From Verrucomicrobiota bacterium (GTDB taxonomy: Bacteria > Verrucomicrobiota > Verrucomicrobiia > Limisphaerales > UBA9464), in NCBI GenBank assembly GCA_017309115.1, contig JAFLEF010000037.1, positions 4,350 through 68,349 on the forward strand: a DNA stretch of 64,000 nt, given 5' to 3'. The translations under genes and the position numbers were made by a program. Shown here one piece after another: positions 42,585 through 64,000 of the stretch. Numbering within the stretch: the stretch's first letter is position 1; the number at the start of each line of letters is the position of its first letter. The notes under the pieces are model-generated. The model was not told the DNA's origin. It saw nothing but the letters and a program-made list of their open reading frames with translations, and made no database searches.

Positions 42585-43370
42585 TCAGTGGGAATGCTCC
42601 ACGCCGTGAGCGTGGGCTCGGGCGTGCAGGATGTGGGCAATGATCTCATCCAGTCCCACGCCGTTCTTTACCTGCGCCATCACAAACGGTCCGTAGCCCC
42701 GCATCTTTTTCGCGTCGCGGGCCATCACCTCCAGATTGGCCCCCACCGCGGGTGCGAGATCGGTCTTGTTGATCACCAACAGATCCGACTGCGTCAGGCC
42801 CGGTCCCCCCTTGCGCGGGATCTTATCTCCGCCGGCCACGTCGATCACCTGGATCGTGAAGTCGGCCAATTCCCGACTGAAACACGCGGCCAAATTGTCG
42901 CCCCCCGATTCCAGCAACAGCAGTTCGGGAGCCACCGCCCGATGCAGATCCTCCAAGGCGAGCAGGTTGGCGGAGATGTCTTCGCGAATGGCCGCGTGGG
43001 GACAGCCACCGGTCTCGACCGCCCGGATCCGTTCCGCCGGGAGCGCCTCGTGTCGCAACAGGAATTCCCCGTCTTCCCGGGTGAAAATGTCGTTGGTCAC
43101 CGCGGCCAGGCTCAGACGATCCCGCAATCGCAAGCAAAGCTGAAGCATGAGCGCGGTCTTGCCACTGCCCACTGGTCCTCCGACCCCGACGGTAAAGGCA
43201 CGCTTCCGATAATCCCGCGCCAACGGCTGATCCCGATCCTGGAAGTGTCCCGGATGCTCCAGATGCTCGTGAGTATGTCCATGCGGCCCGTGGTCGTGGG
43301 AATGGCTGTGGCTGTGGCTGTGCGAATGCGAGTGTCCGTGGGAATGCTCGTGCGAATGTGGGGCGCCCAT
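42585..43370 (-). CDS. ureG: Urease accessory GTPase UreG with a His-rich N-terminal extension
   Basis: ATG at 43370 (the ORF extends to a TTG at 43406). [41 protein letters not shown] is followed by the P-loop [12 protein letters not shown] and the conserved [18 protein letters not shown] and ESGGDNL motifs. Confidence 0.95.
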
Positions 43371-43446
43371 CGCGGGAATAGTGAGCACAGTCCGTTCGAG
43401 TGGCAAATAGGCAGAGACCGCGAATGGCGAACATGAGTCCGGGCCG

Positions 43447-43878
43447 TCAGCTTCGGGAAGCTAAGTATCCCCGCCATCCGCCAAAGACCGTGATTTCGTG
43501 CTGACCTTCGCACAGCCACGGTTCGCCCAGAACGCCCAACACATCGGTTCCATCGCGCAGTCGAACCTTGCCGATGCTCAATCCCGGCGGTTCGGCCAGA
43601 AGCACTGACGCCAAGCCCGCGGGTGGAACGGCCCAGATCTCCAAGGCGACCGAGGAACCACCTTGGCGAAACCGCATCATCGCCGGATGCCGGTCCCCAA
43701 TGGTCCAGACCCGGTACTCGGGTGCCGTCGCATCCTCGCGCACAAACGTGGCTCCCACCCGCAACAGATTCGGATTGAGTTCCAAACCTCGCATCAGAGT
43801 CCCATTAACGGCCAACCACACAGGAGATGAATCCATAGAAATTCCAGAAGTGGGCCCGCCGATCTGCTCCCCCGACAC
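43447..43878 (-). CDS. Stand-alone homolog of the allophanate hydrolase C-terminal domain (gamma-glutamylcyclotransferase-like fold)
   Basis: [40 protein letters not shown]...[16 protein letters not shown]...[18 protein letters not shown]...[11 protein letters not shown] parallels the AH C-domain pattern as I remember it (VAVVGAH.SG.PLN..L...GA......T.P.YRLY.L...IE.EVW..P...FG.F...IG.V.L.DG....GF..E......DIT.FGGWRAYL). The start is GTG at 43878 or ATG at 43836. Confidence 0.6.
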
Positions 43879-43881
43879 GCC

Positions 43882-44298
43882 CTATTCTTCGAGAAACACC
43901 ACCGGCTTCTCGTAAATCGCCAAAACAATGCAACCCGCTTCGCTGATCACCCGGTGGGACGTTCCCGGCGGATTGATCATCAGGGTCCCCGCCGTGGCGA
44001 CGCTGTTCTGATCCCGCTGCGATCCCGCCAAGATCAGGATGTGCTCATAGCCGGCATGGGAGTGCAGCGGGATCCGTCCCGCCTTTTGGAAACGCAGCAG
44101 CGCCGCCGTCGGCCCGGTCCGACCATCGCCGTACAGCCGGTGAATCTGCACGCCCTCGCGAAAGGGTTGCCAGGGGATCTGATCCGCCCGCGCGGCCAGT
44201 TGGAACAACTCCGTCAGTTCGATCCGGGGATAAGTGGGGAGCGAGAGTGAGGTGTCAGACACGTTGGGACGAAAGCCTACCGGGCGGGTGCGCGACAT
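43882..44298 (-). CDS. Cupin domain protein (ChrR-like cupin)
   Basis: IPWQPFREGVQIHRLYGDGRTGPTAALLRFQKAGRIPLHSHAGYEHILILAGSQRD...PPGTSHRV is a two-motif cupin. I prefer the ATG at 44298, because the upstream part of ORF 43882..44508 is R/P/W-rich and overlaps the next gene. Confidence 0.6.
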   Translation of the reverse strand: MSRTRPVGFRPNVSDTSLSLPTYPRIELTELFQLAARADQIPWQPFREGVQIHRLYGDGRTGPTAALLRFQKAGRIPLHSHAGYEHILILAGSQRDQNSVATAGTLMINPPGTSHRVISEAGCIVLAIYEKPVVFLEE

Positions 44299-44449: not shown

Positions 44450-45133
44450 TTACTTCGAAATCGCCTGAATGAAGGCCGCGGAATCCGCGACCGCCCCGAA
44501 AACGCCACCCTGCATTTTGATCATTTTCAAGGCGGCGCGGTAATTGCCCACGTCCGTCGCCCCCGTGCAATCCGAGAGCATCAAGCACTCGTAGCCGCGG
44601 TCATTGGCCTCGCGCATGGTGGTATGGACACACACATCCGTGGTGATACCCGCTAAGGCAATGTTCTGGATCTGACGCCGTCGAAGCAGCATGTCCAGGT
44701 CAGTGGCGTAGAACGACCCCTTGCCCGGCTTGTCGATGACCGCTTCCCCGGGCAGGGGCGCCAGCTCAGGAATGATGTCCCAGCCGGGTTCGCCCCGAAT
44801 CAGAATCCGTCCGCACGGGCCGGCATCGCCAATTCCCGCCCCAATCCGCTGGCTGCGCCACCGCTTGTTCTCGGGCAGATCCGCCAAGTCCGGCCGATGT
44901 CCCTCCCGGGTGTGCATGATGTGAAATCCGGCCGCCCGGGCCGCCGCCAACACCTTCTTGATCGGCTCAATCGGAGCCCGGGTCAGGGACAGGTCGTAAC
45001 CCATCTTGTCCACGTACCCGCCGACCCCGCAAAAGTCGGTCTGCATGTCGATGACCAGCACGACGGTATTCTCGGGCCGCAAATCACCATTGTACGGCCA
45101 GGGATACGGATCAGCTGCCACGGTGCGCTTCAT
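44450..45133 (-). CDS. Isochorismatase-like (IHL) cysteine amidohydrolase, paralog A
   Basis: The Asp-Lys-Cys triad motifs are present: [31 protein letters not shown]. The insert [14 protein letters not shown] is shared with paralog B. ATGA overlap with the permease stop. Confidence 0.85.
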
Positions 45134-46743
45134 GCGGTCGCTCCTTGGGGTTCATGGTGGGACTCTTCGGCATGGACCACCGGCGCCGGCACGGTGGCAA
45201 ACTTGGCGCAGGCTGCGAACAGCACCGCCACCAACCCATAGCTTGCCGCCACCACCGGTGATTGCCCGATGCCAATGCGTTCTCCGTGCATGAATCCGAA
45301 ATAGGTCATCAGCGCTCCCGCCAGGGCAAAGCCCGCCGCCTTGTAGAATCTCCGGTCAATGATGCACACGGCGATCGCCCCGAGGATCAAGCCGCCCAAA
45401 ATTGATCCACCGCCGAGTACCTGCAGACCATGATACAGCACGCCTTCGTTGCGCATTTTGCCCTCGAGATCCGCCAGTTGTTGCGGACTCAAAGCCGGCA
45501 TGACCGTTCCCGCCGCCGCCAATGCGCCGTTGATCAACGTCACGGCCCAGTTGGCCAGATGCGGAACCAGCGAGAGGATGATCGCCGGCGCGTGGGACTT
45601 CGGAGTCTCCTGGAAGGCCTGCGAACCAATCAGCATCGCGATGTAGAGCAGGATCGGGAGAATCGCCACCGCCGGAATGACCGCCAACATCAGCGAGATC
45701 GTTCCAAACCAGCACAGCAGGATCACCAGGATTCCCGTCGCCGCCGAGTATCCGATTCGCCCGCCCATCGCCTTCCAACCCGGATGCCCAATGTACACGG
45801 CGTTGATGAACGGATTACCCATCATACATCCGATCAGGCTGACCACGCCGTCCGCGGTCAGCACCCGAACCGTCGGGAAGCTGTCCCCAGCTACCGCGGC
45901 GCTCTCCACGTTGTCGATGGCTTCCACCAGGTCATAGATGCCGAACGGGATGGCAGTCACGAGCAGGATTCCCAGGAACTCAAACCCGGAGAACACATGC
46001 CCGAACGCCGGCAACGGCACCCGGAACCCGAAGCTGGTGAAAGCATCCGTCACTCCCTTCAACGACATCCCGCCGAAGTTCAATCCCACGGCCGTCGAAC
46101 CCCAGGCAATCGCCGTGCCCACCGCAATGGCGATCAGACCCGCAGGCACTCCCCGATACCGCACGCCGCCAAACCAGCTCAGCAAGATGATCGCAAAGCA
46201 CACCAACCCGATCACCGGATTGAGGAACATCTCCAGCGCCGGTCGCATCGAGATGAAGGTAATGGAAACACCGGCCAGTGTGCCCAGCAGGGCGGCTCGC
46301 GGCGTGATCTTGCGAATCCACGGCGCCACAAACCCGCCAATCATCAACACAAAGCTTTGAATGAACACCCAAGTCAGTCCCGCCTCCCAACCCTTGATTG
46401 GATCACCCGTCTTGAGGGTGATGGGCAGCATGATCACGAAGGTGACCACGAACATGTGGGGCACGCTGATCCCAGAGGGCAGTGCGCAAATGTCCGAGCG
46501 GCCGGTCTTCAACGCCAATTTGTAGGCCAGCCAGGCGTAGTACATCGTGGACAGAAACAGCATCAGTCCAGTCGCGGGCAGGATTCGCCCAAAGACGAGG
46601 TCGTCCGGCATTTTCAGCACAAACCGGAGCAGCGCCGTCAGCGTGAGCAAATTGACCAGGATGTTTGTGCCGAAGCCGAAGAAGGCATTCCAGTCTCCGG
46701 GCACCCAAATCTTGGGTTTAGTGAGCGTGGCAGTGGTGTTCAT
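45130..46743 (-). CDS. Polytopic permease, NCS2/AzgA-like (xanthine/uracil permease superfamily)
   Basis: 537 aa with ~12-14 hydrophobic segments. The N-terminus [18 protein letters not shown] and the overall layout are reminiscent of AzgA-type purine-like permeases. The family call is from memory only. Confidence 0.55.
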
Positions 46744-46782: not shown

Positions 46783-47460
46783 TTACGAGAGGACAGAGAC
46801 CAGGCGGTCGGAATGGGTGACCCAGCCGAAGATGCCGCCCTGGGCTTTGATCATGTTCAGACCCATTTCCTGGAAATGGGGGAAGTAGGAACCCACACAA
46901 TCCTCAGGCACGAGGCAGTCATAGCCCCGGTCATTGGCCTCGCGGACGGTGGTGTTGACGCAGACCTCGGTCGTCACTCCGGTGACCACCAACTGGGTGA
47001 GTCCCTGATGCTGCAGAATCGACTGCAGATCCGTGGCGTAGAAAGCGCCCTTGCCCGGCTTGTCGATGATCGGTTCCGAAGGCAGCGGGTAAAGTTCGGG
47101 AATGATGTCATGCCCGACTTCTCCCCGAACGAGGATTCGACCCATCGGGCCGACATCCCCGATGCAGGTCGTACCCCGCCCGCGAATCTTCTTCGCCGGC
47201 GGTAGATCGGTGAGATCGGGCCGATGCCCTTCGCGGGTGTGAATCACCGTCAGGCCCGCCTTTCGCCAGGCGGCCAGAAGGCGGCGGTTGGGTTCAATGG
47301 TCCGACGCAACTGAGAGACGTCGTTCCCCAACATTTCCCCGAAACCGCCGGGCTCGAGAAAGTCCCGCTGCATATCTATAATCAGCAGCGCGCACTTCGC
47401 CGGAGTCCACTCGAAGGGATAAGGCTCCGCTTCGATCGGTATCGTGGGTGGGAGTTGCAT
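46783..47460 (-). CDS. Isochorismatase-like (IHL) cysteine amidohydrolase, paralog B
   Basis: Triad motifs [49 protein letters not shown] is also present. By eye, about half the positions are identical to paralog A. Confidence 0.85.
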   Translation of the reverse strand: MQLPPTIPIEAEPYPFEWTPAKCALLIIDMQRDFLEPGGFGEMLGNDVSQLRRTIEPNRRLLAAWRKAGLTVIHTREGHRPDLTDLPPAKKIRGRGTTCIGDVGPMGRILVRGEVGHDIIPELYPLPSEPIIDKPGKGAFYATDLQSILQHQGLTQLVVTGVTTEVCVNTTVREANDRGYDCLVPEDCVGSYFPHFQEMGLNMIKAQGGIFGWVTHSDRLVSVLS

Positions 47461-47474
47461 GGGTTGGCAGAGAA

Positions 47475-48482
47475 TCAGAAGAAGATACCAATACCTCCGT
47501 ACACCTGGGTGATGTCGGAGACCGCTTTGCCCGGGGCATTGAACTGCTGCATGCCCTGGAGATTTTCGTCGATGAAGTCCTGGAAGCGGAAGCCAACGTG
47601 GAAGTTCCAGTTGCCGTAGCCCGGCGCGATGAACTTCAACGGCACACTGCCCTTCACCCCCAGTTCGTAGAGGCCCACGGTCGAGCTCGGTCCGTAGTAC
47701 TCGCCGTAGAAGTTCGAGTCCGGCAGCAATACCCGCAGCGGCGCCTCCAGCCGAATCTGATACTTACTGAACGTGTATCCCGGGGTCACCCCGAGCTCAA
47801 AATAGAATCCTTCGCCCGGTCCCGGTTCGCCCAGAAACACATTGTACGGAACCCTCGCCGCCGTGGCCTTTTCGGAGAGTTCAGCCCAGAACATGAAATA
47901 GGGGCGCAGCGAGAACTGCTTCAGCCAGGGAGAATCATCCAACGTCAACTTCACCTCCAGATTCTGCGACGTCGGGATGTCCAGGATCTGCATGTTGAAG
48001 ACGCTGTAGGTCATGTCCAACTTCAGCTGCTTCATCAGCGTCAGCGAAACTCCGGCGATGGCATCAATTTCCACCCAATGGGTCTTGGGCTCGCTGCCGA
48101 AGGGCGCCTGCCGGGAGACGGGTTCCGTGGCGAAGTCGTTCCAGACTCCGCCCACCAACGTCACGTCATTCACGAAGGAGTCGGACTTGTAGACGTTCAC
48201 GAATCCCAAGAGCAATGGCTGAAAGGTCAAACCGTCGTCTTGGACGATCATGCCGCGGGGCGTCAGATACGCGTCGGCGAATTCAAAGTTCAACAGCATG
48301 TTGACCCGCGACGGTGACGGCGGCGGACTGGGATCCTGCCCTTCGTTGATTTGCGCGACGGCCGAGAGCCCGGGAGCGCTCAACAACGCCGCCGTTGCCA
48401 GCGAACGCCAGGGACGAGAAACACCGGAATAGCCAGACCGGTGGGAAACCGCAGATGTCTTCGAGGAAGCCAACATGTTCAC
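47475..48482 (-). CDS. Putative outer-membrane beta-barrel (porin-like) protein
   Basis: Signal peptide ...LATAALLSAPGLSAVAQ. Amphipathic beta-strand pattern rich in Y/F/G. The C-terminal GGIGIFF has an OMP-type terminal Phe. It is the first gene of the hydrolase/permease run. Confidence 0.55.
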   Translation of the reverse strand: MNMLASSKTSAVSHRSGYSGVSRPWRSLATAALLSAPGLSAVAQINEGQDPSPPPSPSRVNMLLNFEFADAYLTPRGMIVQDDGLTFQPLLLGFVNVYKSDSFVNDVTLVGGVWNDFATEPVSRQAPFGSEPKTHWVEIDAIAGVSLTLMKQLKLDMTYSVFNMQILDIPTSQNLEVKLTLDDSPWLKQFSLRPYFMFWAELSEKATAARVPYNVFLGEPGPGEGFYFELGVTPGYTFSKYQIRLEAPLRVLLPDSNFYGEYYGPSSTVGLYELGVKGSVPLKFIAPGYGNWNFHVGFRFQDFIDENLQGMQQFNAPGKAVSDITQVYGGIGIFF

Positions 48483-48532
48483 AGGAGGTTCGAGGGTGGG
48501 ACCGCGAGTTCATCGACTCGCTGCCCTCCTTA

Positions 48533-48549
48533 AAGCTCCCGCCATGCCA
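48533..48549 (-). promoter_or_regulatory. Candidate sigma-54 (-24/-12) promoter upstream of the beta-barrel gene
   Basis: The minus strand reads TGGCATGGCGGGAGCTT. The GG and GC dinucleotides have the canonical spacing of TGGCAC-N5-TTGC. It lies ~50-65 nt upstream of the start at 48482, next to a gene for a GAFTGA-containing activator. The -12 box is imperfect (GAGCT). Confidence 0.35.
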
Positions 48550-48674
48550 GCGGCACCACTGTCCAAAAACCTCGTGTTTACAGGGCTTTCTCCTTCCGCC
48601 CTCCCCGGGCCGCCAAACCTCGCCTGTTTCAAGTGTCGCCTGTGAAACACCTGCGACAGAGGGTCGGGATGGTC

Positions 48675-50189
48675 TCATGCGCTTCCTTCGCGTCCGGCCG
48701 CCGCCGGTTGCTCCTCCAACGCAAGTTTGCGGTAGATGCGCGTGCGATGAACCCCGAGCAGTCGGGCCGCATCCGCAATGTTGCCACCGGTCTCCTGCAA
48801 GGCGCGCTGAATTAAAAGATCCTCCGCGGCCGCCAGATTCAATGGCAGTTCCTCCACCGCCAGCGGACGGCTGCGAACCGGGGAGTCACTGACCCGTCGC
48901 CCTCCCGGCAAGCCCAGATGCGCCGCCTCAATCGATCCGCCGCCGCTCTCAATCAGCGCGCGCTCCATCACGTTCTTGAGCTCCCGTACATTCCCCGGAA
49001 AGGCATGCTGCGACAGCGCCCTCTCGGCTCCCGGCGTCAGCAGCGGCGGACGCAGCCCCATCTCCCGAGCGAACACTCCCAGGAAGTGTCGCGCGAGCAA
49101 CGGCACATCCTCCGACCGCTCCCGCAGGGCTGGCGTGTGCACCCGATATCGGGCCAGGCGGAAGAACAGATCCTGACGAAACGTTCCCGCCGCTACCCGG
49201 GCATCAAGATCGGCATTGGTCGCGGCGACAATGCGAACATCCACCTGCCGCGCGTGCGTGGCACCCACCGGAGTGATGCGTCCATCTTCCAACACACGGA
49301 GCAGCTTGACCTGAAGGCTCACCGGCATGTCGCCGATTTCGTCGAGAAACAGCGTCCCGCCATCCGCCAGTTCGAAATAACCTTTCCGATCCGTCAGCGC
49401 TCCGGTGAATGCCCCGCGGACATGCCCAAACAGTAGCGACTCCGCCAGTTCCCCAGGGATCGCTACGCAGTTCACCGGGATGAACGGACCCTGGGCGCGT
49501 TGACTGTCAAAGTGGATGGCCCGTGCGACGAGCTCCTTGCCCGTACCGCTTTCTCCGGTGATCAGGACGGAGGTTCGGGCAAACGCATGCAACCGCCGAA
49601 TCTCCTCCACGACCTTGCGAATATGCGGACTGGCTCCCACCAGTCCGGCGACGTTCCAGCGCTCGGCTTCCCGACCCGACATCACCGCGAGCTGTTCGTC
49701 CGCCCGTTCCAGCGCCAGTTCGGCCTGCTTCCGTCGCTGCATCTCCGCAGTGAGCTCGGCGGTGCGCGTTTCCAAGGCCTGATTCTTCTCCCGTAATTCC
49801 CGAGTCAACCGATTCAGCCGCAGATGGGTCGCCACCCGGCTCAGCACTTCGTCGGTCTGGAAGGGCTTCACCACGTAGTCCACACCCCCGGCGCGAAACC
49901 CATCCACCACGCTGGTCAGTTCGGTTCGCGCCGACAGAAAAATCACCGGAATCTCCCGCGTGGCTGGATCCGCCTTCAGCCGCCGACAGGTCTCCAAGCC
50001 GTCCACTTCTGGCATGAGGATGTCCAGCAGGATGAGCTCCGGGGCCGCCCGGTTCGCCACCTTGATTGCCGCCAAACCGCTGGACGCCGCCAGAATCTCG
50101 TACCCTTCAGGTTCCAGCGCCGCAGTCAGCAACGCCAGGTTCTGCGGCACATCATCCACCACCAGGATTTTTCCGGACGTAGGCGACAT
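48675..50189 (-). CDS. Sigma-54-dependent response regulator (NtrC family: REC + coiled-coil linker + AAA+ + Fis HTH)
   Basis: REC domain (KILVVDDVPQNL...DILMPEVDG). Walker A GESGTGKELVARAIH. GAFTGA loop (VRGAFTGAL). The C-terminal HTH is GNIADAARLLGVHRTRIYRKL. Confidence 0.9.
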   Translation of the reverse strand: MSPTSGKILVVDDVPQNLALLTAALEPEGYEILAASSGLAAIKVANRAAPELILLDILMPEVDGLETCRRLKADPATREIPVIFLSARTELTSVVDGFRAGGVDYVVKPFQTDEVLSRVATHLRLNRLTRELREKNQALETRTAELTAEMQRRKQAELALERADEQLAVMSGREAERWNVAGLVGASPHIRKVVEEIRRLHAFARTSVLITGESGTGKELVARAIHFDSQRAQGPFIPVNCVAIPGELAESLLFGHVRGAFTGALTDRKGYFELADGGTLFLDEIGDMPVSLQVKLLRVLEDGRITPVGATHARQVDVRIVAATNADLDARVAAGTFRQDLFFRLARYRVHTPALRERSEDVPLLARHFLGVFAREMGLRPPLLTPGAERALSQHAFPGNVRELKNVMERALIESGGGSIEAAHLGLPGGRRVSDSPVRSRPLAVEELPLNLAAAEDLLIQRALQETGGNIADAARLLGVHRTRIYRKLALEEQPAAAGREGSA

Positions 50190-50210: not shown

Positions 50211-52664
50211 CTAGGTTCCGGAGGGAGTTTCGACCGGCCGGGGTGTGACCGCTTCGGACAGCAAGCGAAGAATGGCGTCCATGTCGTAGCTGCGCATCCG
50301 ATGGCGGATCAACTCCGCCAACACCCGCGCCTCGGGCCCGTGATCACGGAGCTCCACCAAGGCAGCCTTAAGCGCCGTAGTGCTGTGCAATTCAGCGGCC
50401 ACCGTTAATCGTCCGAGCAGATCTTCGGGCAGGGTGATCCGGGGCAGCGGGGCCGACATTGCCGTCAGATGTTCCACCCCCGATTCGGCCAACTCAAACT
50501 CCACTCCCAACTGCCGCGACAAGCAGTCATAGAGCCGCTCGGCGCGAAACGGCTTCGCCAAAAAGTCGACGCAACCCGCGGCGCGGGCCTCCGCCTCGAA
50601 GGCGGGGAGTGCGGACGCGGTATGCGCCACGATCGCTAGCCGAGGGTGAGTCGCCCGCAGCTTCCGCGCGACTTCCAGACCACTGATCCCAGGCAACAGC
50701 AGATCCAAAAACACAATGTCCGGGACCTTCCGCCCGATTGCTTCCAGCGCCGATTCGCCATCGGCGGCCAATTCAACGTCGCAGCCAATCACGGTCAGCA
50801 GCCCGCCCAACACATCGCGATTTTCCCGGGCATCATCCACCACCAAGGCGCTCACCTTCGTTCCTGGTTTGAGCTGCTTCACATCCTGCCCCACCGCTGG
50901 AAAATCCGCCTGGCTGACCGGAAGAGGTACTTCAAAGTGGAATCGCGAGCCAATGCCCTCGGCGGACTGCAACTCGAGCTGACCTCCCAAGAGTTCCACC
51001 TGGCGGCGCGCAATGGCGAGTCCCAATCCCGTCCCTGCCTGATCCCGGGCTCCCCGGCCCTGATGGAACGGCTCAAAGATATCCCGCTGCTCCTCAGGGG
51101 GAATTCCCAGTCCGGTGTCGATCACCTCAAACCGCCAGCGATTCTCCCCCACGCGTCGCGCCTGGACGTACACCTCGCCGCGTCGAGTGAACTTCACGGC
51201 ATTGCCCAACAAATTGATCAGGACCTGACGCAGTTTCCCCTCGTCCCCGCGCACCGCCAAGGTCCCCTCCGGATGCACCTCCATCCGGAATCCGATGCGC
51301 TTCTGGGCGCACAACGGATGGAACGTCGCCGCCAGACTGCGCACTAAGGCGGTCAGATCGAAGTCGACCGGATTCAATTCCATCCGTCCGGCCTCAATCT
51401 TCGACAGATCCAAGATCTCATTGATCAACCCCAACAAGTGCTGGCCGCTGGAACTGATTCCGGCCAGGGCATCGTGTTGTTCCGGCGGCAACGATGGATC
51501 CCGACGCATCAACTGGGCGTACCCCAGGATCGCGTTCAACGGAGTGCGAATCTCGTGGCTCATGTTGGCCAGGAAGTCGGACTTCGCCTGATTGGCCGCC
51601 GCCGCTGCCGCCTCGGCCTCCTGCCGCACCCGGACTTCCTCCTGCAACGCCGCATTGGCCGCCGCGATGTCTTCGGTCCGACGCCAGTTGCCAATCAGGT
51701 AGGCCGTCAGCAGTCCGGAAAACGCCAGTCCCCCCAGCAGCACCCAGCGCGACTGCGTGCGAGTCTGCTTCGACGCAAAGGTGGGCGTCGGCGTGAACAC
51801 CAGCGTCCAGGGACGCCCGGCAAATTCCAGGGTCGTGCGCTGAACTCCATCGGCCGGGGTCAGGGCCAGAGTCGTGTCCCCGAACATCCATTCCCCGCTC
51901 GGTGACTCGTCGAACAACGCCGCCCGAATACCGCCCAAATGCAATTCCCGGAAAGCCGACTCCACCAGTGCGGCCACGCGGAAAACGGCGACGGCGAACC
52001 CGGCCAGTTCCCGTTCCCGATGAAACACCGGACGCAACACCAGCAACCCGGCCTCGCCCTCAGGACCTTGGGCCAACCGGACCGGAGCCGTCGCCACCGG
52101 CTGTCCGGAAGTCCGCGCCGCCTCGATGGATCCCCGACGCCGCGCATCCGATTCCAGATCGAACCCCAGAGCCAGCGCGTTTCGTTCCGGAGGTTCGATC
52201 AGATAGACGGGGACATACTCCGGACGGATTCCGGCGGGCACCAGTGCTCCTTCGGGTGAGTGTTCCCGGAACTCAAAGGACTCCACTCCTTCCGCCCGGG
52301 CAGCGACTTCAAAGGCAGCCCGCTGGGAGGCGGGGACCCAGGGATTCCATGAGAGCGCCTGGAGTTCCGGCTGACGTTCCAAGGCGGGCCGGACAAACGC
52401 GCGAAACTGGCGGCGACTGATTCCGCCTTCGACGTCGTGCAACGCGGCAATGGAATGCAGGACTTCGATCGACTGCAGCATGCTGACCTGCAGTTTCTCC
52501 ACCTGTTCCCGGGTGAAGTCGGCCGCACGCAGATTGAGTTCGCGTTGTTCCCACGACCGCAGGTTCTCGTAGAGCACTCCCGACAACGCGAGAGCCAACC
52601 CCACCACGCTGAAAATCCAGAATGGGGGCCACCGGCGGCGCTGCTGAAAGGTCCTGCGTGGCAA
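50211..52664 (-). CDS. Hybrid sensor histidine kinase with a periplasmic CHASE domain (CHASE-TM-HisKA-HATPase-REC + C-terminal helical tail)
   Basis: TTG start. An N-terminal TM helix is followed by CHASE-like blocks ([55 protein letters not shown]). The H-box is [17 protein letters not shown]. HATPase G-boxes are present ([14 protein letters not shown]). REC domain ([12 protein letters not shown]...DLLLPGISG). Confidence 0.9.
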
Positions 52665-54350: not shown

Positions 54351-55028
54351 TTAGCTTTGGAAGAGGCGCATCGGCAGGCGGTCGTGCAGACCTTGCCAGA
54401 GATCCTGCAACGGGACCGTCTGCGCCACGTCGTCCAAGCCCAACTGACCGCAGCGAACCCGCACCGATTCTCCCAGCGGCGCCATCCGCCGCTGCCAGCC
54501 CTGCGCTTCGAGCGGACCAAGCCGATTCAACCGAACCGCCGCCGCCACCAGACCCCGCAGATGCCAGAACAGGAACAACCGTTGAACCGTCTCCAGAGGA
54601 AGACCGAGTTGGGCTGTCACCGCGCCGAAGACCGGTGCCAGGTGCCCCCGGAACTGCGGTTCGGAACTCAGGGGCGGGAGTTCGAAGATGCGCTCCGCCG
54701 CCAACAGGAGCGCCCGTCCCTGAAGTCGACTCGCTCGGTTAGCCACGTGATTGGAGGTAAACGCCTCGCAGAACTCGTCCCACTCCAGGATTCGCTCCGG
54801 GGCTTCATAAGCGACCCGAACTAAAGGCAACACCGCCCGACCCACCTGCTCCAGGCTGGTCCGAAAAAACCGTTCCAATCCTGCTCGATCCGACACTTCC
54901 CCGATTTGAACTGCCGCCTCGAGCCCCGCCGAATGCGCGAAGCCGCCCGATGGGAAGGCCGAGTCCACCCACTGCCATACCAACCACTCCAGTTCGGGGG
55001 CCATGCCGGTCATCAGGGCGTCAGCCAA
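54351..55028 (-). CDS. ureF: Urease accessory protein UreF
   Basis: LVWQWVDSAFPSGGFAHSAGLEAAVQ is the UreF signature. The ORF starts at a TTG at 55028, with an alternative ATG at 55013. Confidence 0.9.
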   Translation of the reverse strand: MADALMTGMAPELEWLVWQWVDSAFPSGGFAHSAGLEAAVQIGEVSDRAGLERFFRTSLEQVGRAVLPLVRVAYEAPERILEWDEFCEAFTSNHVANRASRLQGRALLLAAERIFELPPLSSEPQFRGHLAPVFGAVTAQLGLPLETVQRLFLFWHLRGLVAAAVRLNRLGPLEAQGWQRRMAPLGESVRVRCGQLGLDDVAQTVPLQDLWQGLHDRLPMRLFQS

Positions 55029-55052
55029 CGGAGAAGTTCATTCCCATCCGGA

Positions 55053-55082
55053 AATCTGTGAAAATCTGCGTTTAATCTGCGG
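55053..55082 (+). repeat. 30-bp three-decamer element (copy 2) in the ureC-ureF spacer
   Basis: aatctgtgaaaatctgcgtttaatctgcgg differs at one base from 30259..30288. Confidence 0.75.
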
Positions 55083-55107
55083 TTCCACCTTCCCCTACGC
55101 GGCGAGG

Positions 55108-56823
55108 TCAAAAGAGGAAGTATCGCTGGGCCAGCGGCAGTCTGGACGCCGGGTCGCAGACGAGGAGTTCGCCATCGGCACGAACCTCATACGTCTCCGG
55201 ATCCACCGTGATCTTCGGCGTCGCATCGTTCCACTTCAGATCCTTCTTCGAAACCGTTCGGCAGCCCCTCACGGCTTCCAACCGCTTGTTCAGTCCGTAC
55301 TGGGTCACGACCCCTTGTTCCAAGCTGAGCCCGCTGACGAACGCCACCGAACTGGCTCCCGTGGCCCGTCCAAAGCTGCCGAACATCGGTCGCATGAACA
55401 CCGGCTGCGGCGTCGGAATGCTGGCGTTGGGGTCACCCATCTGGGACCACGCAATGAACCCGCCCTTGATCACCATCTCCGGCTTGGCCCCAAAAAAGGC
55501 CGGCTTCCACAAGACGAGATCGGCCAGCTTTCCTTTTTCCACTGAACCCACCAGATGTCCCATGCCATGAGCCAGGGCCGGGTTGATGGTGTACTTGGAG
55601 ATGTATCGCTTGATCCGCAGATTATCGTTGGCACCGGATTCCCCCGGCAGACGTCCCCGCTGCTGCCGCATCTTATCGGCGGTCTGCCAGGTGCGGGTGA
55701 TCACTTCCCCAATGCGCCCCATCGCCTGACTGTCGCTGCTCATCATGCTGATCGCGCCCAAATCGTGCAGGATATCTTCCGCCGCAATGGTCTCGCCGCG
55801 AATCCGACTTTCGGCAAAGGCCACGTCCTCCGGCAACGTGGCATCCAAATGATGACACACCATCAGCATGTCCAGATGCTCATCCAGGGTGTTAACCGTG
55901 TACGGCCGCGTCGGATTGGTAGAACTGGGCAGGACATTCCGCTCCCCGCAGATCCGAATGATGTCCGGCGCGTGCCCACCGCCAGCACCTTCCGAGTGGT
56001 AGGTGTGAATGGTGCGACCTTTGAAGGCAGCGATGGTTCCCTCGACGAAGGTGGATTCGTTCAGCGTGTCGGTGTGGATGGTCACCTGAACGTCATGCTG
56101 ATCCGCCAGGGTCAGACAGCAATCAATGGCGGCCGGCGTCGTTCCCCAGTCCTCGTGCAACTTCAGTCCAGTGGCTCCAGCGCGAACCTGTTCGATCAAT
56201 CCAGCCGGCAACGCGGTGTTCCCCTTGCCGGTCAGACCAAAGTTCAGGGGCAGCGTATCCAACGCTTGAAGCATCAGGCGGAGGTTGTGGGAACCCGGCG
56301 TACAGGTGGTGGCACAGGTTCCGACGGCCGGACCGGTTCCGCCTCCCACCATGGTGGTCAAGCCGGAGGCAATTGCTTCATGGGCCTGCTGCGGACAAAT
56401 GAAATGAATGTGGGTGTCGAGTCCGCCGGCGGTGAGAATCAGTCCCTCGCCCGCGATGACCTCGGTGGTCACGCCCACAATTAGCCCCGGGGTGACCCCG
56501 GCCATGACATCCGGGTTGCCCGCTTTGCCAAGCCCCACAATCAAGCCGCCTTTGATCCCGACGTCGGCTTTGAAGATTCCCGTGTAATCCACCACCAAAG
56601 CGTTGGTGATCACCACATCCAAAGCATCGGCATCCCCAATGCCAGCGGCCTGGCCCATGCCTTCACGAATCACCTTTCCGCCGCCGAACTTGCATTCATC
56701 GCCATAGACGGTGTGGTCCTTCTCCACCTCCAGGATGAGGCTGGTGTCTCCCAACCGAAGTCGGTCCCCGGTGGTGGGACCAAACATCTCGGCGTAGTGC
56801 TGACGGTTCATTCGATGCGGCAT
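55108..56823 (-). CDS. ureC: Urease alpha subunit UreC
   Basis: The ATG at 56823 gives [29 protein letters not shown]. The motifs [32 protein letters not shown] and the C-terminal YFLF are all canonical. Confidence 0.97.
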
Positions 56824-56857
56824 GGCGGAATCTCCGGAAATGGTCAGGGTTGGGAAA

Positions 56858-57625
56858 TCAGGCGGACACGGATTCCTGGTGGGCAAACCCGCGTTGCTTC
56901 ACGGCCGCCAGGGCCTTTTGGCGACCTTCTTCGCTCACCGGGCCACTGGCCAAGGCGTTACCTCCCTGGATTACCCGGTTTCCGGCGATATCCACCAGGA
57001 CTACGGTTTTGGTTTCGCCGGGTTCAAAGCGGACTGCAGTGCCAGCCGGGATATTGAGGCGCTTGCCATAGGCGAGCGAGCGGTCGAAGCGCAGCGCCCC
57101 ATTGGTCTCGACAAAGTGATAGTGACTGCCCACCTGGATGGGTCGGTCTCCGAGGTTAGTGACCGCCAGTGACACTACCGACCGGCCTTCATTAAGAACG
57201 ATTTCGCCGTCCAAAATTTCCGCCGACCCAGGCTCGGGTTCATTCACAGGCGCCGGGAACAAATCAAGTGAAGGCACCGGGAGAAAACTGCCGTACAACG
57301 CCAGAGTCAGATCTCCGTGTTCGGCGGCGATCGGGTGATGCACTGTGACCAGTTTGGAGCCGTCGGGAAACGTCCCTTCCACTTGAACTTCGATGATCAT
57401 CTCCGGAACCCCGGGCAGCACCTGATTTCGCCCCAGAAACTTTCGACCCAGGCTCATCAACTCCGCCACCCGGCGTCCGTCGCGAATGAACTCAAGCAAT
57501 TGCGTGGAGATCAGGGCAACCGCTTCCGGATAGTTCAGCCGAACTCCACGGGCCAGGCGTTTCTGCGCCAGAAACCCGGCGTTGTGCAGAGCCAGTTTCT
57601 CAAGTTCGCGGGGAGTGAGATGCAT
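56858..57625 (-). CDS. ureAB: Fused urease gamma-beta subunit (UreA-UreB)
   Basis: The N-terminal half [39 protein letters not shown]... is UreA (gamma). A ~35-aa linker follows. The C-terminal half [36 protein letters not shown]...[16 protein letters not shown] is UreB (beta). Confidence 0.95.
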
Positions 57626-57667
57626 GGAAGAAAGGATCAGGGAGAACTTCGCAGGAAGGCAACTCTG

Positions 57668-58507
57668 TCACCACTTTCGAGCCAGCGGATCGTCGCCCAA
57701 AAACGCCGGCAAAAACGCGAGACACTCGGCAGTCTGACGGCGAACCGCCTCCACCGTGGTACCCGCCACTCGGATCAATAAGCCTCCGGCGAGTGGACTG
57801 GCACTCAGTCGGGTGGCTGCTCCACGGCCGGCGGGCCGAGTCTGAATCGTCTCACTTAGCGCCTGCACCGCCGTCGCCAGAGGAGGCCCCCACAGAACGA
57901 TCAACGTCATCGCCTGACAGGATCCCATGCGAACCCCGATAGGAATCTCCGGACCGTCTTGGAGGACCACGGAGTCCAGCCAGCGGCGGGATCCTTCGAC
58001 CCACAATTCCGTGCGCGTCCGGTATTCCTCGAACTGCCAGTGTTCGCCCCGTTCGGAGCGACCGGCGGTAAAACCATCCACCCACACCAATCCGGCGGAA
58101 GCGGCCATCCGGATCTCCTGCTGCTGCCGATACCGCGCACCAGCGAAGGCCTGTACCGGATCGGGAATCCAGGCGAGAAAAGAATCCTCCTTCAGAATGG
58201 CCCGGGTCCGTTGCAAGCAGGGAAGTCCGACGGGTGACCGGTAAACTTTGGTGGAAGACTGCGTGCCGAAGAAGGCCGAGGCGCCAGCGCCAATCGTGAG
58301 GTCGAGGTGATGTTCATCGCCGGACACCATGCCTCCGCCATAACTGCTCACATACGCCCAGACACTCCGACCCCGGGGACGCGGCGTGAGCAGTTTGAGC
58401 GGGCTCGTCGCGGACGCCTGAACGACTGCCGACGAACCGGAAACTTGCTGCACGTCCAGTTCCAATCGCCCGGCGGGATTCCGGGTTTCCCAAAGCATTC
58501 GGCTCAA
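57668..58507 (-). CDS. ureD: Urease accessory protein UreD/UreH
   Basis: The position between urtE and ureAB, the length of 279 aa, and blocks such as GGGMVSGDEHHLDLTIGAGA and TQSSTKVYR are typical of UreD. The start is a TTG at 58507 (overlaps the urtE stop) or an ATG at 58498. Confidence 0.85.
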   Translation of the reverse strand: MSRMLWETRNPAGRLELDVQQVSGSSAVVQASATSPLKLLTPRPRGRSVWAYVSSYGGGMVSGDEHHLDLTIGAGASAFFGTQSSTKVYRSPVGLPCLQRTRAILKEDSFLAWIPDPVQAFAGARYRQQQEIRMAASAGLVWVDGFTAGRSERGEHWQFEEYRTRTELWVEGSRRWLDSVVLQDGPEIPIGVRMGSCQAMTLIVLWGPPLATAVQALSETIQTRPAGRGAATRLSASPLAGGLLIRVAGTTVEAVRRQTAECLAFLPAFLGDDPLARKW

Positions 58508-59199
58508 ACCGTCAGATGTTGTTTGACGATGTCGTCGTTGAGGTGGCGGATCGGACCCTCGGCCACAATCGCGCCGCGATCCATGATGTAGAAAACATCC
58601 CCCACCTCGAGACAGAAGTCGAGGTACTGCTCCACCAGCAGGATTCCCATTGTGCCGATGCCCCGCAGGGTTTTGATGGTCTCACCAATCTGGTCGATGA
58701 TGTTCGGCTGGATCCCTTCGGTGGGCTCATCCAGGAGCAACACCTTGGGCCCGGTTAAGAGCGCGCGACCGATCGCCAATTGCTGCTGTTGTCCGCCGGA
58801 AAGCACCCCGCCCTTGCGTTGCAGCATCTCCTTCAGCACCGGAAACAGTTCAAACACCCGTTCCAACTCCCCGTTGAGCCGCTTGCCCTGCGCAATGGCA
58901 CCGATTCGCAGATTCTCCCAAACGGTGAGACTCGGAAAAATGTCCCGTCCCTGGGGCACGTAGCCGACCCCAGAGCGTGCTCGTCCATCCGGGGGAAGGC
59001 CGACCAACTCCTGACCATTCAGTTTCACCGAACCCGAGACCGGCTTCACCAGTCCCACAATGGATTTGAGGGTCGTGGTTTTGCCAACGCCATTGCGGCC
59101 CATCAGACAGACCACCTGCCCGGGCGCGACAGTCAGGCTGACGTCCCGCAGAATGCGCGAGCCGTCGTAGTTCACGAGAATGTTGGAGAGAGCCAGCAT
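58504..59199 (-). CDS. urtE: Urea ABC transporter ATP-binding protein UrtE
   Basis: Walker A GRNGVGKTT, GVGYVPQGRDIFPSLTVWENL, the signature LSGGQQQQLAIGRAL, and LLLDEPTEGIQP. Confidence 0.9.
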   Translation of the reverse strand: MLALSNILVNYDGSRILRDVSLTVAPGQVVCLMGRNGVGKTTTLKSIVGLVKPVSGSVKLNGQELVGLPPDGRARSGVGYVPQGRDIFPSLTVWENLRIGAIAQGKRLNGELERVFELFPVLKEMLQRKGGVLSGGQQQQLAIGRALLTGPKVLLLDEPTEGIQPNIIDQIGETIKTLRGIGTMGILLVEQYLDFCLEVGDVFYIMDRGAIVAEGPIRHLNDDIVKQHLTV

Positions 59200-59216
59200 G
59201 GAAAGTTGGGGGGAAT

Positions 59217-60005
59217 TCAGTGGGCCGCGAGGGCAGGAGTCGGACCAGGCTTCTCCTTTTTCTTGCGCCCGAGATAGACCTCGATGACCCGCTCATCATT
59301 CTGCACCTGATCCACGGTGCCTTCGCAAAGCACATGGCCCTGATGCAACACGGTCACTTTGCGGGCAATCTGCCGGACGAAGACCATGTCATGCTCGATC
59401 ACCACGATCGTGTGCTTGCCGGCCAATCCAATCAGAAGCTCCCCCGTCTTGGCAGTTTCCTCGTCGGTCATGCCCGCGGCGGGTTCGTCCACCAGAAGCA
59501 CCTTGGGATTCTGGGCGAGCAGCATGCCGATCTCGAGCCACTGCTTTTGACCATGCGACAGTGAACCCGCCTTCACGTCGGCCCGGGCGGCCAAGCCCAC
59601 GGTCTGGAGCACCTCATGAATCCGGTCCCGCTGCGATGTGGTCAGTCGAGACACCAACGCCTGCCATAGTCCGCGGCTACCTTCGAGCGACAGCCAAATG
59701 TTCTCGAACACCGTATGATCGGTGTACACTGACGGCGTCTGGAACTTGCGTCCGATGCCCAGTCGATTGATCTGATACTCGTTCAGCCGGGTCAGATCCG
59801 TGTCCTTGCCGAACTCAACCTTGCCGGTGTCGGGTCGGGTCCGGCCGGTGATGATGTCCAGCATGGTACTTTTCCCGGCCCCATTGGGTCCAATGACCAC
59901 CCGGAGCTCGCCCTTATCGAGATACAGGTTGAGGTCATTAATGGCCTTGAAGCCGTCGAAGGTTTTATTGACCCCTTCGAGCATGAGGATGAATTCGGGA
60001 GTCAT
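59217..60005 (-). CDS. urtD: Urea ABC transporter ATP-binding protein UrtD
   Basis: The ATG at 60005 forms an ATGA overlap with the urtC stop. Motifs: [77 protein letters not shown]. Confidence 0.9.
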
Positions 60006-61171
60006 TCGGCGGCGGGTTTGGCGGCTGTGGACGGAGTCGAAGTAGGAGCGTCCTCCGGTTTCGTTTTCTTGCCCCGGCGGAAGGTCCGCCATTGCTCGGG
60101 CAAGCCGACGATTCCCTTTGGCATAAACAGAGTCACAAAAACGAACAAGGCGCCCAGGATGTAGGGCCATTGTTCAGCGAAAGCGTGGGTGGCGTAACTC
60201 TTAAGCGAATTGACACCAATGGCGCCGAGTACCGGGCCTACCAGAGCGCCGCGGCCTCCCACCGCACACCAGACCACTGCTTCGAGTGATTTGTCCGGCG
60301 CCATTTCGCTGGGGTTGATGATCCCGACCAACGGGACAAACAAAGCACCGCCGAGCGCGCATATCACTGCCGCCAGGACGAACACGAAGAGCTTGAACTG
60401 GGCAGTGGCATAGCCGGAGAACAGCACCCGATTCTCAGAATCCCTGATGGCCCGTTGGATCAGACCAAACTTGGTGGAGGTCAGCCAGCGGCAGAACATG
60501 TAGACGCCCAGAAGGAGCGCCACGGCACAAATGAACAAGGCGCGCTTGGTGGAGGGCGAATTGAGGTCGTAGCCGAGGATGAACTTGAAGTCGGTCAGTC
60601 CGTTGTTCCCACCGAAGGTGAAGTCGTTACGGAAAAACATCAGCGAAGCGGCGTACGTCAGCGCCTGGCTCAGAATCGAAAAATACACGCCTTTGATTCG
60701 CGAGCGGAAAGCCAGGTACCCGAACGAAAGCGCCACTAAAGCCGGCACCCAAATCACCGCTGCCGCGGCAAACCAGAAGTTGCGGAACGGGATCCAATGA
60801 GGCGGTAGTCCGCCCGTCTCCGGAAATCGTTTGGGGAACTCGAGAAAGACCATGAAGTCCGGAATGTCGGCCTTGTACTGACCCAAATTCCCAATCATCA
60901 GCATCAGGTACATGCCGAGGCAGTAACCGCCGAGCGAGAAGAACAAGCACTGGCCCAGGCTGAGAAGCCCTGTGTAGCCCCACAGCAGGTTCACTCCCAA
61001 CGCCAGCACGGCGTAGCACAGGTATTTGCCCCAGATGCTGAGACTGAAGGTGCTAACGTGGAAAAAGCTGTCGGGCGACACGAAGGTATTGAGGGCCGGC
61101 AACACGCCGAACCCGACCACCGCCGCCAACAGCAGCAGCCAAGCTTCAGTTCGGGAAAATGAGCGCAACAT
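60002..61171 (-). CDS. urtC: Urea ABC transporter permease UrtC
   Basis: Branched-chain-type permease. [24 protein letters not shown] is typical of UrtC. The position is between urtB and urtD. Confidence 0.9.
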
Positions 61172-61206
61172 GGGGATCTCGTTTCAGGGGGAACCGTCCG
61201 CGTTTC

Positions 61207-62892
61207 TCAACCTTCCAAACTCCGTCCCCGGGTCGGAAAAATTCCAGCCGGACGCCACTGCAGGAACAGAATGACGGCGGCCAGAACGGTGATCTTGCCC
61301 AGCACCGCGCCCAACCACGGCTGCAGGATCTGGTCGGTGATGCCGACTCCAAGCGAAGCGAAGACGGTTCCAAAAAGGCTGCCCACCCCGCCCAACACGA
61401 CGATCATGAAGCAATCCACAATGTAGTTCTGACCGAGACTGGGACCCACATTGCCGATCTGGGAGAGGCACGCGCCTGCCATACCAGCCAGCCCCGATCC
61501 GAACGCGAAGGTGAACATGTTGATTCGATCGGTGCGCACCCCTACGCAGGACGCCATGGCCCGGTTCTGCATGACAGCCCGGACCTGGAGACCCAGAGAG
61601 GTCCGGGTCAGTAACAACCAGGTCGCGACCACGATGAAACAGGCGAAGGCGATGACAAAAACGCGGTTGTAAGCGAACAGCACATCATTGAACACGAAGC
61701 TGCCACTCAGCCAACCCGGGGAAGTTACTTGGACATTGGCGGCGCCGAAGATGTGCCGGAAGAGTTGCTGCAACAGCAGGCTGACACCCCAGGTGGCGAG
61801 GAGCGACTCCAGCGGTCGCTTGTAGAGGAAACGAATGACGCCCCGCTCCAAGGCGAGACCCACACCCCCGGCCACCACGAAGGAAACCGCCAGCGCGAAG
61901 AGAAAATACAGGTCGAAACCACCACCGGATCCGCCAAACCAGGACTTGAACACGTTCTGCACCACATAGGCCGTGTAAGCCCCCACCATCATGATCTCGC
62001 CATGGGCCATGTTGATGACCCCCATCAGCCCGAAGGTGATCGCCAAGCCCAGCGCGGCGACTAACAGGACCGCCGCCAGACTCAGGCCGCGAAAGGCGGT
62101 TCCCAACAGATTGCCCCACGCCTGATACGACTGGATCTGCACCACCGCCGTATGCGCCGCATTGAGGGTCTCCGCGCCGTACTTGGAGGGTTCCGCCTTC
62201 GCCTTCGCCTCCAGTTCCTGAAGGTACCCAACTCCATTGATCGATCGCATTTCCCCGAGCTGCTGAATCGCCGGGATTCGCACCGTTGGATCGGCGTCCG
62301 CCGCCCGAGTTAACGCGATCGCCTCGGTCAACGCGTCCTTCACCTCCAAAGAAACCTCCTCCTTCAAACGATCCGCAAACACGGTCAAGTAGTCCGGGTT
62401 CTGCTCCTGACCCAACTTGATCGCGGCGTCGCGCCGAATCTTCTCGTTGGGATCGGAGAGCGCGTACAAATCCATCGTGGCCTTGATCGCGCGGCGCAGC
62501 TTGGAGGTATTCTCCGCACCCGTCAGTTCGGCCGCCGCGAACCGCAATTCGGCGCCCGAACCATCCTTAAGAAATTCACCATTGAGCAATTGGATCGCCC
62601 GGGCTTTTCCGTCGGCATCCAACTGAACATCGAGCACTACCGGAACGCGGCCGCCGTCCCGCTCCAACAGAAACACCTCACTCTGGCGCCAGGCCGCCAA
62701 GCCCCGCTCCACCAGCGGATCCCGCAAGCGCACCAACTGTTGAATCAACTGAATCTGCTCGTCTTGATCCTCACTCAGCAACGCCTTCACCAACACTGCC
62801 CGGCCGCCTTCCGCCTGCTGAGCATGCAGCTTACCGGCCAGCGCCAGAAACATCAGCAGCCAAACCAGGAGAGGTGCGGGGAGTCGAATCAT
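61207..62892 (-). CDS. urtB: Urea ABC transporter permease UrtB (long form with an N-terminal periplasmic HEAT-like extension)
   Basis: The ATG at 62892 gives MIRLPAPLLVWLLMFLALAGKLHA. A ~270-aa helical-repeat region follows, then the LivH-type core (GLAITFGLMGVINMAHGEIMMVGAYTAY). Confidence 0.9.
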   Translation of the reverse strand: MIRLPAPLLVWLLMFLALAGKLHAQQAEGGRAVLVKALLSEDQDEQIQLIQQLVRLRDPLVERGLAAWRQSEVFLLERDGGRVPVVLDVQLDADGKARAIQLLNGEFLKDGSGAELRFAAAELTGAENTSKLRRAIKATMDLYALSDPNEKIRRDAAIKLGQEQNPDYLTVFADRLKEEVSLEVKDALTEAIALTRAADADPTVRIPAIQQLGEMRSINGVGYLQELEAKAKAEPSKYGAETLNAAHTAVVQIQSYQAWGNLLGTAFRGLSLAAVLLVAALGLAITFGLMGVINMAHGEIMMVGAYTAYVVQNVFKSWFGGSGGGFDLYFLFALAVSFVVAGGVGLALERGVIRFLYKRPLESLLATWGVSLLLQQLFRHIFGAANVQVTSPGWLSGSFVFNDVLFAYNRVFVIAFACFIVVATWLLLTRTSLGLQVRAVMQNRAMASCVGVRTDRINMFTFAFGSGLAGMAGACLSQIGNVGPSLGQNYIVDCFMIVVLGGVGSLFGTVFASLGVGITDQILQPWLGAVLGKITVLAAVILFLQWRPAGIFPTRGRSLEG

Positions 62893-62965
62893 GCGAAAGT
62901 GAACTGGGATTATTGAAAAGGGGACGGGTCGCCTCCGACCCGTCCCGTGTGGCAACAGGAGGAGA

Positions 62966-64000
<1,035 letters not shown>

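Follow-up and report, generated by a model that had tools for sequence, protein, structure and literature searches.

The stand-alone allophanate hydrolase C-terminal (AH_C) gene of the window, by which the whole analysed stretch of 64,000 nucleotides from a Verrucomicrobiota bacterium is meant, is the penultimate gene of a mobile biuret/triuret cassette that has been inserted between ureF and ureG. With a probability of roughly one half, and as argued from sequence, its product would be a catalytic partner that decarboxylates N-carboxy-ureides in a biuret/triuret cassette devoid of allophanate hydrolase (AH), thereby feeding urease. The substrate, the decarboxylation reaction and urea as the product are those parts of the proposal that we infer.

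Family, fold and conserved residues of the AH_C protein

Counted from a GTG at 43878, the open reading frame comprises 143 aa and contains all of the strings (48 and 11 protein letters) quoted from it in an earlier note on this DNA. Because its nearest database twin (P0001, 99% identical) has 129 aa, the ATG at 43836 is the likelier start, which would yield a protein of the same length. In a profile search, the frame is matched by positions 3-123 of 123 of the Pfam family AH_C (PF21986) with 128.9 bits (E 1.4e-37), the gathering cut-off being 27 bits, whereas the GGACT/AIG2-like family (PF06094) attains 20.4 bits in the N-terminal half only and stays below its cut-off of 22.8. The NCBIfam models of allophanate hydrolase match with their last ~130 positions only. 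For instance, TIGR02713 (allophanate hydrolase, EC 3.5.1.54) scores 93 bits against a cut-off of 511 and aligns at model positions 437-563 only; the polypeptide falls outside this model, as the amidase-signature N-domain is missing from it. Nor is an amidase domain encoded beside the gene, and the domain is truly free-standing, just as the earlier note had it.

The AlphaFold model of the protein (mean pLDDT 84.9), when compared with solved structures by Foldseek, superposes best on PDB 5C5Z (TMt 0.92, rmsd 1.5 A) and on the C-domain of the K. lactis AH (KlAH, 4ISS; TMq 0.80, rmsd 2.1 A). It hence displays the GGCT-like fold as defined by superposition on a solved AH C-domain, while true GGCT/GGACT structures give a much weaker TM of 0.47-0.61. 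5C5Z represents c4763 of E. coli CFT073, a "uropathogenic E. coli-specific protein", which is likewise free-standing, is 58% identical to the protein of the window (E 3e-46), belongs to the same clade and features the same VNGTLMRG motif. The resemblance to AH C-domains is thus specific rather than generically AIG2- or GGACT-like, with respect to both profile (PF21986 versus PF06094) and fold. The presence of an NGTL loop and an invariant E80 was judged by sequence alone, both being set against the YGSL-type carboxylate-binding loop and the catalytic Glu82 of GGACT.

In a tree of 142 AH_C sequences, the stand-alone family and the fused-AH C-domains fall on opposite sides of a split with 100/97 support. 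Members of the c4763-type clade are defined by grouping with 5C5Z, the motif VNGTLMRG and a length of about 125-145 aa; the protein of the window is of this type, carrying the motif and branching together with 5C5Z, separately from the C-domains of AHs that are fused. Common to both clades are G26, G31, T51, Y55, R69, G74, E80, E119, W135 and R136. Fused AHs feature the motif (V/C)GAHLxG, with His in 36 of 38 cases, whereas Leu (L28) replaces this His within the motif of the stand-alone clade in 100/104 sequences. Across these 104 sequences, N25, T27, L28, M29, E33, D62, H64, E96 and K104 are nearly fixed, and N25, E33, D62, H64, E96 and K104 are clade-specific in comparison with fused AHs. 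The c4763-type family is a sister clade of the AH C-domain and not an AH fragment. The earlier statement that the protein mirrors this domain accordingly stands with regard to Pfam family and fold, but not in the sense of a copy, given the separate clade and the loss of the fused-AH His. Two short proteins on the fused side of the tree look like split AHs. The same applies to L072 and L073, the short AH_C frames of which were rejected as family members; these are split or frameshifted true AHs of the fused clade, located beside an amidase ORF or urea carboxylase.

The His of the fused-AH motif is presumably the catalytic His492 of K. lactis AH; in that case, the stand-alone clade, with its Leu at this position, must do without this catalytic residue. 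Fan et al. are said to have observed in 2013 that mutation of His492 halves the ammonia release of the K. lactis enzyme, and they reportedly proposed that the fused C-domain converts N-carboxycarbamate to carbamate and CO2. The replacement of this His by Leu, as read from the alignment, counts against a decarboxylase in that AH chemistry cannot simply be copied. Stand-alone proteins are 60-80% identical across phyla, and polar residues conserved at such a level would fit an enzyme rather than a spacer and argue for an active site.

The cassette, its host genome and related genomes

The gene indeed lies immediately upstream of ureG, at a distance of 40 nt; however, it is not simply part of a urease operon, as had been supposed, but belongs to the biuret/triuret cassette nested between ureF and ureG (Table 1). 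On the minus strand, the urt/ure block up to ureF is followed by the genes for the CHASE kinase, the NtrC-type regulator, the beta-barrel protein, the second IHL, the permease, BiuH, the cupin, AH_C and finally UreG, with a plus-strand ATP-grasp gene sitting between the ureF block and the kinase. From the beta-barrel gene through ureG, the intergenic gaps amount to 14, 39, -4, about 151, 3 and 40 nt, the cupin gene ending 3 nt upstream of AH_C. BiuH and the second IHL are located upstream of AH_C in the same orientation, which bears out the proposed neighbourhood of IHL hydrolases with a BiuH equivalog and a TrtA-like member. Because the cassette is inserted in between, ureG is ~11 kb away from ureD-ureAB-ureC-ureF (54351-58507). 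No ureE-like gene was apparent when the ORFs from 52.6 to 58.5 kb were scanned.

Table 1. Genes of the cassette and the adjoining urease region in the window
Feature	Position	Strand	Evidence
UreG urease-maturation GTPase, His-rich N-terminus, last gene on cassette strand	42585..43406	-	TIGR00101 271.7 bits, cut-off 204
Stand-alone AH_C (c4763-type)	43447..43878	-	PF21986, 5C5Z, Foldseek, P0001 twin
Small ChrR-type cupin (Cupin_7), intact HxH...E...H metal motif	43882..44298	-	PF12973 E 2.5e-19; PDB ChrR cupin matches
Biuret amidohydrolase BiuH (makes allophanate)	44450..45133	-	NF050097 equivalog 419.4 bits, cut-off 370
537-aa multi-pass permease	45130..46743	-	75-90% identical copies in all related cassettes; 4-nt overlap with BiuH
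Second IHL cysteine hydrolase, TrtA-like	46783..47460	-	6XIX/6XJ4 best PDB matches
Putative outer-membrane beta-barrel, first cassette gene	47475..48482	-	Kept at cassette head in relatives
NtrC-type sigma-54 response regulator	48675..50189	-	Pfam; synteny
CHASE hybrid histidine kinase	50211..52664	-	Pfam; synteny
urtABCDE, ureD, ureAB, ureC, ureF (urease and urea uptake)	54351..64000	-	NCBIfam and Pfam

The second IHL scores 274 bits against the BiuH model and thus stays under the cut-off of 370. In the PDB it matches 6XIX/6XJ4 with 272 bits (about 62% identical) and the Herbaspirillum BiuH 6XJM with 254 bits. On the basis of PMC7948467, we take 6XIX/6XJ4 to be the entries of the triuret hydrolase TrtA. 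With TrtA as the closest structures, the view that the second IHL constitutes an IHL-type allophanate amidohydrolase, which would feed N-carboxycarbamate to AH_C, is weakened.

The open frame of the cupin reaches 44508, 70 codons upstream of where conservation sets in, and runs into the end of BiuH. Judging by the conserved stretch and by the relatives, translation probably starts near 44298, so that ~150 nt after BiuH would remain untranslated. Neither the 537-aa permease (at E<=0.01) nor the putative beta-barrel protein matched a Pfam or NCBIfam family. Homologues of the permease that are ~50% identical come after AH_C in the betaproteobacterial carbamate-kinase cassettes. Profile searches with Pfam and NCBIfam detected no AllFGH or carbamate kinase genes in the cassette of the window. 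According to synteny, the NtrC-type regulator and the CHASE kinase travel with the cassette. Matches to the sigma-54 promoter consensus TGGCAC-N5-TTGC were no commoner than in shuffled sequence, and none was located in the gap 48483..48674.

The host genome (7.5 Mb, 95% complete) harbours a single AH_C match, the gene of the window. No full-length AH was found in this 95%-complete genome, the best TIGR02713 score being 164 bits against a cut-off of 511. Its amidase-signature genes are only two in number, namely GatA (605 bits, TIGR00132) and a Tat-secreted PRK08137 amidase. Hence, a split AH, the amidase part of which would reside elsewhere in the genome without a C-domain, was rejected as far as a 95%-complete genome allows; the search for such an amidase had been proposed in the earlier note.

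A related arrangement is the TrtA-(TrtB)-BiuH-AtzF pathway of Herbaspirillum sp. BH-1 and Rhizobium leguminosarum (PMC7948467), in which TrtA-like and BiuH-type hydrolases are clustered with a transporter as well. This pathway includes AtzF/TrtB, whereas the host genome is devoid of both and features the cupin, AH_C and urease in their place. A search of the host genome for a TrtB/AtzH homologue (PF11533) was empty, and the known carboxybiuret decarboxylase TrtB was rejected as a pathway member. TrtB is said by Aukema et al. in 2020 to be AtzH-like. The AH_C protein itself does not belong to PF11533, its fold being unlike the AtzH-like NTF2 fold. TrtB resembles it in the proposed decarboxylation of an N-carboxy-ureide within the same pathway, but, with an unrelated fold, AH_C would be an analogue and not a homologue.

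Of 121 genomes searched within the genus, family and order of the host, 20 contain AH_C, in each case as a short frame. BiuH/TrtA-type genes occur in exactly the same 20 genomes and in none of the other 101 (Fisher p 3e-23), and a full AH is absent from all 20. Urease is encoded by 19/20 AH_C-positive as compared with 26/101 AH_C-negative relatives (p 5e-9, kinship being ignored), a correlation that could also reflect a shared nitrogen-scavenging lifestyle. AH_C directly follows the cupin gene within the same cassette in all 17 related loci that were read. In these 17 relatives, the order of TrtA-like gene, permease, BiuH, cupin and AH_C is kept with small permutations; ureG comes after AH_C in some of them, and the kinase-regulator pair and the barrel gene are usually found ahead. 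In some verrucomicrobial loci, AH_C is preceded by two tandem small-cupin copies (L092 9157-9900, L108 9209-10000 and L142 9078-10000). Four records (L075, L077, L078 and L102) comprise the verrucomicrobial cassette with 70-80% identical proteins and the same synteny, yet bear the titles 'uncultured Klebsiella sp.', 'Bifidobacterium sp.' or 'Klebsiella pneumoniae'; mislabelling of the MAG bins is the probable cause.

Conservation of this kind also bears on the view that the protein is a generic gamma-glutamyl(amine) cyclotransferase-type enzyme or the fragment of a decayed AH, carried along as a chance passenger. Its weak GGACT match of 20.4 bits and the existence of short AH_C ORFs that are split or frameshifted AHs (L072, L073) might point in this direction, but the match is sub-threshold, the TM values of 0.47-0.61 for GGCT/GGACT are surpassed by those for 5C5Z and KlAH, no amidase remnant is adjacent, and a distinct, strongly conserved clade is perfectly co-inherited with BiuH/TrtA. 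Such a passenger is therefore highly improbable and essentially excluded. A drifting duplicate, the alternative envisaged in the earlier note, fails as well, since the genome contains no canonical AH and the neighbourhood is strongly conserved.

Occurrence, genomic contexts and fusions in other phyla

A length-restricted search returned 6,251 clusters of stand-alone AH_C homologues at 90% identity, the best 120 of which all measure 123-148 aa and are 70-99% identical. An all-against-library search yielded 1,491 AH_C representatives, the closest of them being nearly all short proteins. Scanning one genome per species for the motif VNG[TG]LMRG gave at least 600 matches, at least 590 of them confirmed relatives; the listed matches stem from Verrucomicrobiota, cyanobacteria, Methylomirabilota/Rokubacteria, betaproteobacteria, Mycobacterium, Aeromonas, Vibrionaceae, Trueperaceae and others. 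The assumption that a stand-alone version is unusual is thus contradicted by more than 6,000 clusters, at least 590 species-level loci and the crystallised member 5C5Z.

When the neighbours within 10 kb were surveyed at 80 species-level loci, a BiuH/TrtA-type IHL, carbamate kinase or urea/guanidine carboxylase was encountered in 52/80. Type A, found in Verrucomicrobiota, corresponds to the cassette of the window. In type B (betaproteobacteria, Mycobacterium, Aeromonas and Vibrionaceae; 17/80 loci), carbamate kinase is encoded directly upstream of AH_C. The order in Aeromonas is AllH / IHL-AllF-AllG-carbamate kinase-AH_C-NCS1 permease / LysR; in contrast to this c4763-type context, the AH_C gene of the window follows a cupin in a TrtA-permease-BiuH cassette. 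Type C, observed in Chthoniobacterales, consists of NikR-like, DUF1989, DUF1989, SMR, urea/guanidine carboxylase and AH_C genes, the latter occupying the usual place of AH behind the carboxylase, in genomes that are urease-positive and lack AH. We take it to be the guanidine carboxylase/carboxyguanidine deiminase operon, which ends in allophanate. In a Chthoniobacterales MAG (L154 4251-10384), the first gene of the DUF1989-DUF1989-SMR-carboxylase-AH_C operon encodes a nickel-responsive regulator of the NikR type, which hints at a nickel (urease) coupling of the pathway. Type D of cyanobacteria comprises BiuH, a second IHL and an ABC transporter, but no cupin. In Trueperaceae (L159 8156-10381), AH_C follows a hydrolase of the gamma-glutamyltranspeptidase (GGT) family. 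Nothing recognisable is linked to AH_C in 23/80 loci, for example beside dnaA in Pseudanabaena.

Several of these neighbours also occur as fusion partners, giving rise to AH_C-BiuH (P0134, BiuH part 394 bits), IHL-AH_C (P0131), AH_C-BiuH-IHL (P0186), Cupin_7-AH_C (P0122), carbamate kinase-AH_C (P0123), GGT-AH_C (P0227), SnoaL-AH_C (P0253) and AH_C-VOC (P0194) proteins. P0134, P0131, P0186, P0122, P0123 and P0227 were placed in the tree, where all six fall in the stand-alone clade. The carbamate kinase-AH_C fusion forms a single frame of about 456 aa in Mycolicibacterium sphagni and Mycobacterium sp. RTGN5 (L141 9029-10399; L132) and, since these are isolate genomes, is real and not a metagenome artefact. 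The GGT pairing (Trueperaceae, P0227) adds a third unrelated amidohydrolase class that is associated with AH_C. Through the fusions to BiuH and BiuH-like IHLs, the suggestion of the earlier note that the domain may act on a carboxylated intermediate or dock onto the IHL hydrolases gains support at the level of gene architecture.

Throughout the context types, a full AH is missing from 26/27 sampled AH_C genomes, including four with a carboxylase operon. Urease is present in 23/27, comprising 5/5 of type A, 4/4 of type C and 7/7 cyanobacterial genomes. The urease-less carriers are Aeromonas enteropelogenes, a 2.1-Mb Vibrionaceae MAG, a complete Trueperaceae chromosome and a Caldilineaceae MAG, in which AH_C is next to or fused with carbamate kinase along with AllFGH-type genes, or follows a GGT-type hydrolase. 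What the contexts have in common is the lack of AH and an enzyme that gives rise to allophanate or an N-carboxy acid like it, be it BiuH, TrtA or a carboxylase along with a deiminase.

In the four urease-less carriers, urea cannot be a useful end product, and a carbamate-like product would fit the carbamate kinase fusion better than urea. AH_C might accordingly be an amidase-independent enzyme that splits allophanate, by hydrolysis or elimination, to carbamate and either a second carbamate or cyanate in a urease-free manner, the carbamate being captured by carbamate kinase. We regard this as unlikely, though it would accommodate the carbamate kinase gene directly upstream in 17/80 loci, the in-frame fusions in M. 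sphagni and Mycobacterium sp. RTGN5, the occurrence in urease-less Aeromonas and Trueperaceae, the almost complete mutual exclusion of AH_C and full AH, and the AH position of AH_C behind the urea/guanidine carboxylase. On the contrary, the link to urease (19/20 versus 26/101 relatives, and 16/16 of the BiuH-, cyanobacterial- and carboxylase-type genomes sampled) is not what complete mineralisation of allophanate would lead one to expect; no precedent is known for amide hydrolysis by a 14-kDa protein of the GGCT fold, and no obvious nucleophile is apparent; and an AllFGH-type carbamoyltransferase could supply the substrate of carbamate kinase in the kinase contexts.

The multitude of fusion partners, in conjunction with the loss of the conserved AH His, would also be compatible with a non-catalytic scaffold or assembly subunit, which docks onto BiuH, TrtA or the cupin for stabilisation or channelling. 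AtzF without its C-terminal 14 kDa retains its activity while its oligomeric state changes (PMC3944691), and a role of this kind has been suggested for that fragment. However, the partners represent unrelated folds (IHL, biotin carboxylase, carbamate kinase, GGT and cupin), which a single docking surface could hardly accommodate, AH_C is unlinked to any partner in 23/80 loci, and polar residues including N25, E33, D62, H64, E80, E96 and E119 are invariant across phyla. A purely structural function thus appears quite improbable.

Proposed reactions and their significance

In the decarboxylase reading, the genes for the beta-barrel, TrtA-like hydrolase, permease, BiuH, cupin, AH_C and UreG would constitute a cassette that imports and degrades triuret and biuret. 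The TrtA-like hydrolase would convert triuret to carboxybiuret and NH3, followed by the release of CO2 from carboxybiuret to yield biuret, perhaps catalysed by AH_C with or without the cupin. Subsequently, BiuH would hydrolyse biuret to allophanate and NH3, and AH_C, possibly together with the cupin, would turn allophanate into urea and CO2. AH_C would bind the -NH-COO- end of the unstable acids, thereby speeding CO2 loss. Finally, the neighbouring urease would split urea and thus free the last two nitrogens as 2 NH3. This scheme is the simplest one in which every part has a role. The host genome contains nothing else that is known to process allophanate, but urease is encoded close by.

The C-domains of fused AHs (K. 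lactis AH/DUR1,2, G. bethesdensis AH and AtzF) have PF21986 and the fold in common with the AH_C of the window, and both come after an amidohydrolase reaction with an N-carboxy product. The latter differs in that it has no amidase-signature partner, belongs to a separate clade and carries Leu for His. Its chemistry would be of the type proposed for the fused C-domain but would involve a different substrate, i.e. a neutral rather than a dianionic partner, which could explain the change from His to Leu.

TrtA yields carboxybiuret, which loses CO2 by itself only slowly (half-life ~20 min); TrtB serves some bacteria as a dedicated carboxybiuret decarboxylase, and BiuH yields allophanate (PMC7948467). 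In view of TrtB and the slow loss of CO2 from carboxybiuret, enzymatic help at such steps has precedent. Allophanate also decarboxylates spontaneously, so that an enzyme may not be strictly needed, and catalysis could be due to the cupin instead of AH_C.

Both the structure of the AH_C family (5C5Z) and the triuret/biuret pathway are already known. The full-text literature searched describes no allophanate decarboxylase and no triuret/biuret pathway that is AtzF-less, cupin-coupled and urease-nested; neither does it report a function for the stand-alone AH_C family or give an account of a strict complementarity between stand-alone AH_C and full AH.

On a more tentative note, and extrapolating from gene neighbourhoods, AH_C proteins of the c4763 type may be widespread cofactor-free decarboxylases of N-carboxy-ureides (allophanate and carboxybiuret) that replace AH in many phyla. 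Nitrogen from biuret, triuret and guanidine would thereby be rerouted via urea and urease, or to carbamoyl phosphate in the AllFGH/carbamate-kinase cassettes. Biuret and triuret are impurities that are spread with urea fertiliser in very large amounts, while guanidine and ureides are common nitrogen sources, and the textbook end of these routes is allophanate hydrolase. Nevertheless, Verrucomicrobiota, cyanobacteria, Methylomirabilota, betaproteobacteria, mycobacteria and Aeromonas include carriers of the upstream enzymes that lack AH and possess the 14-kDa AH_C instead. A function for AH_C would fill a gap in the pathway annotation of hundreds of species and would explain the tie between the cassette and urease. 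Moreover, the stand-alone protein provides a clean system for the question of whether the fold of the AH C-domain is catalytic or not, which arises from the studies on the K. lactis enzyme and AtzF; if these proteins indeed form a decarboxylase family, the old question of catalyst versus scaffold would be settled for the AH C-domain, too.
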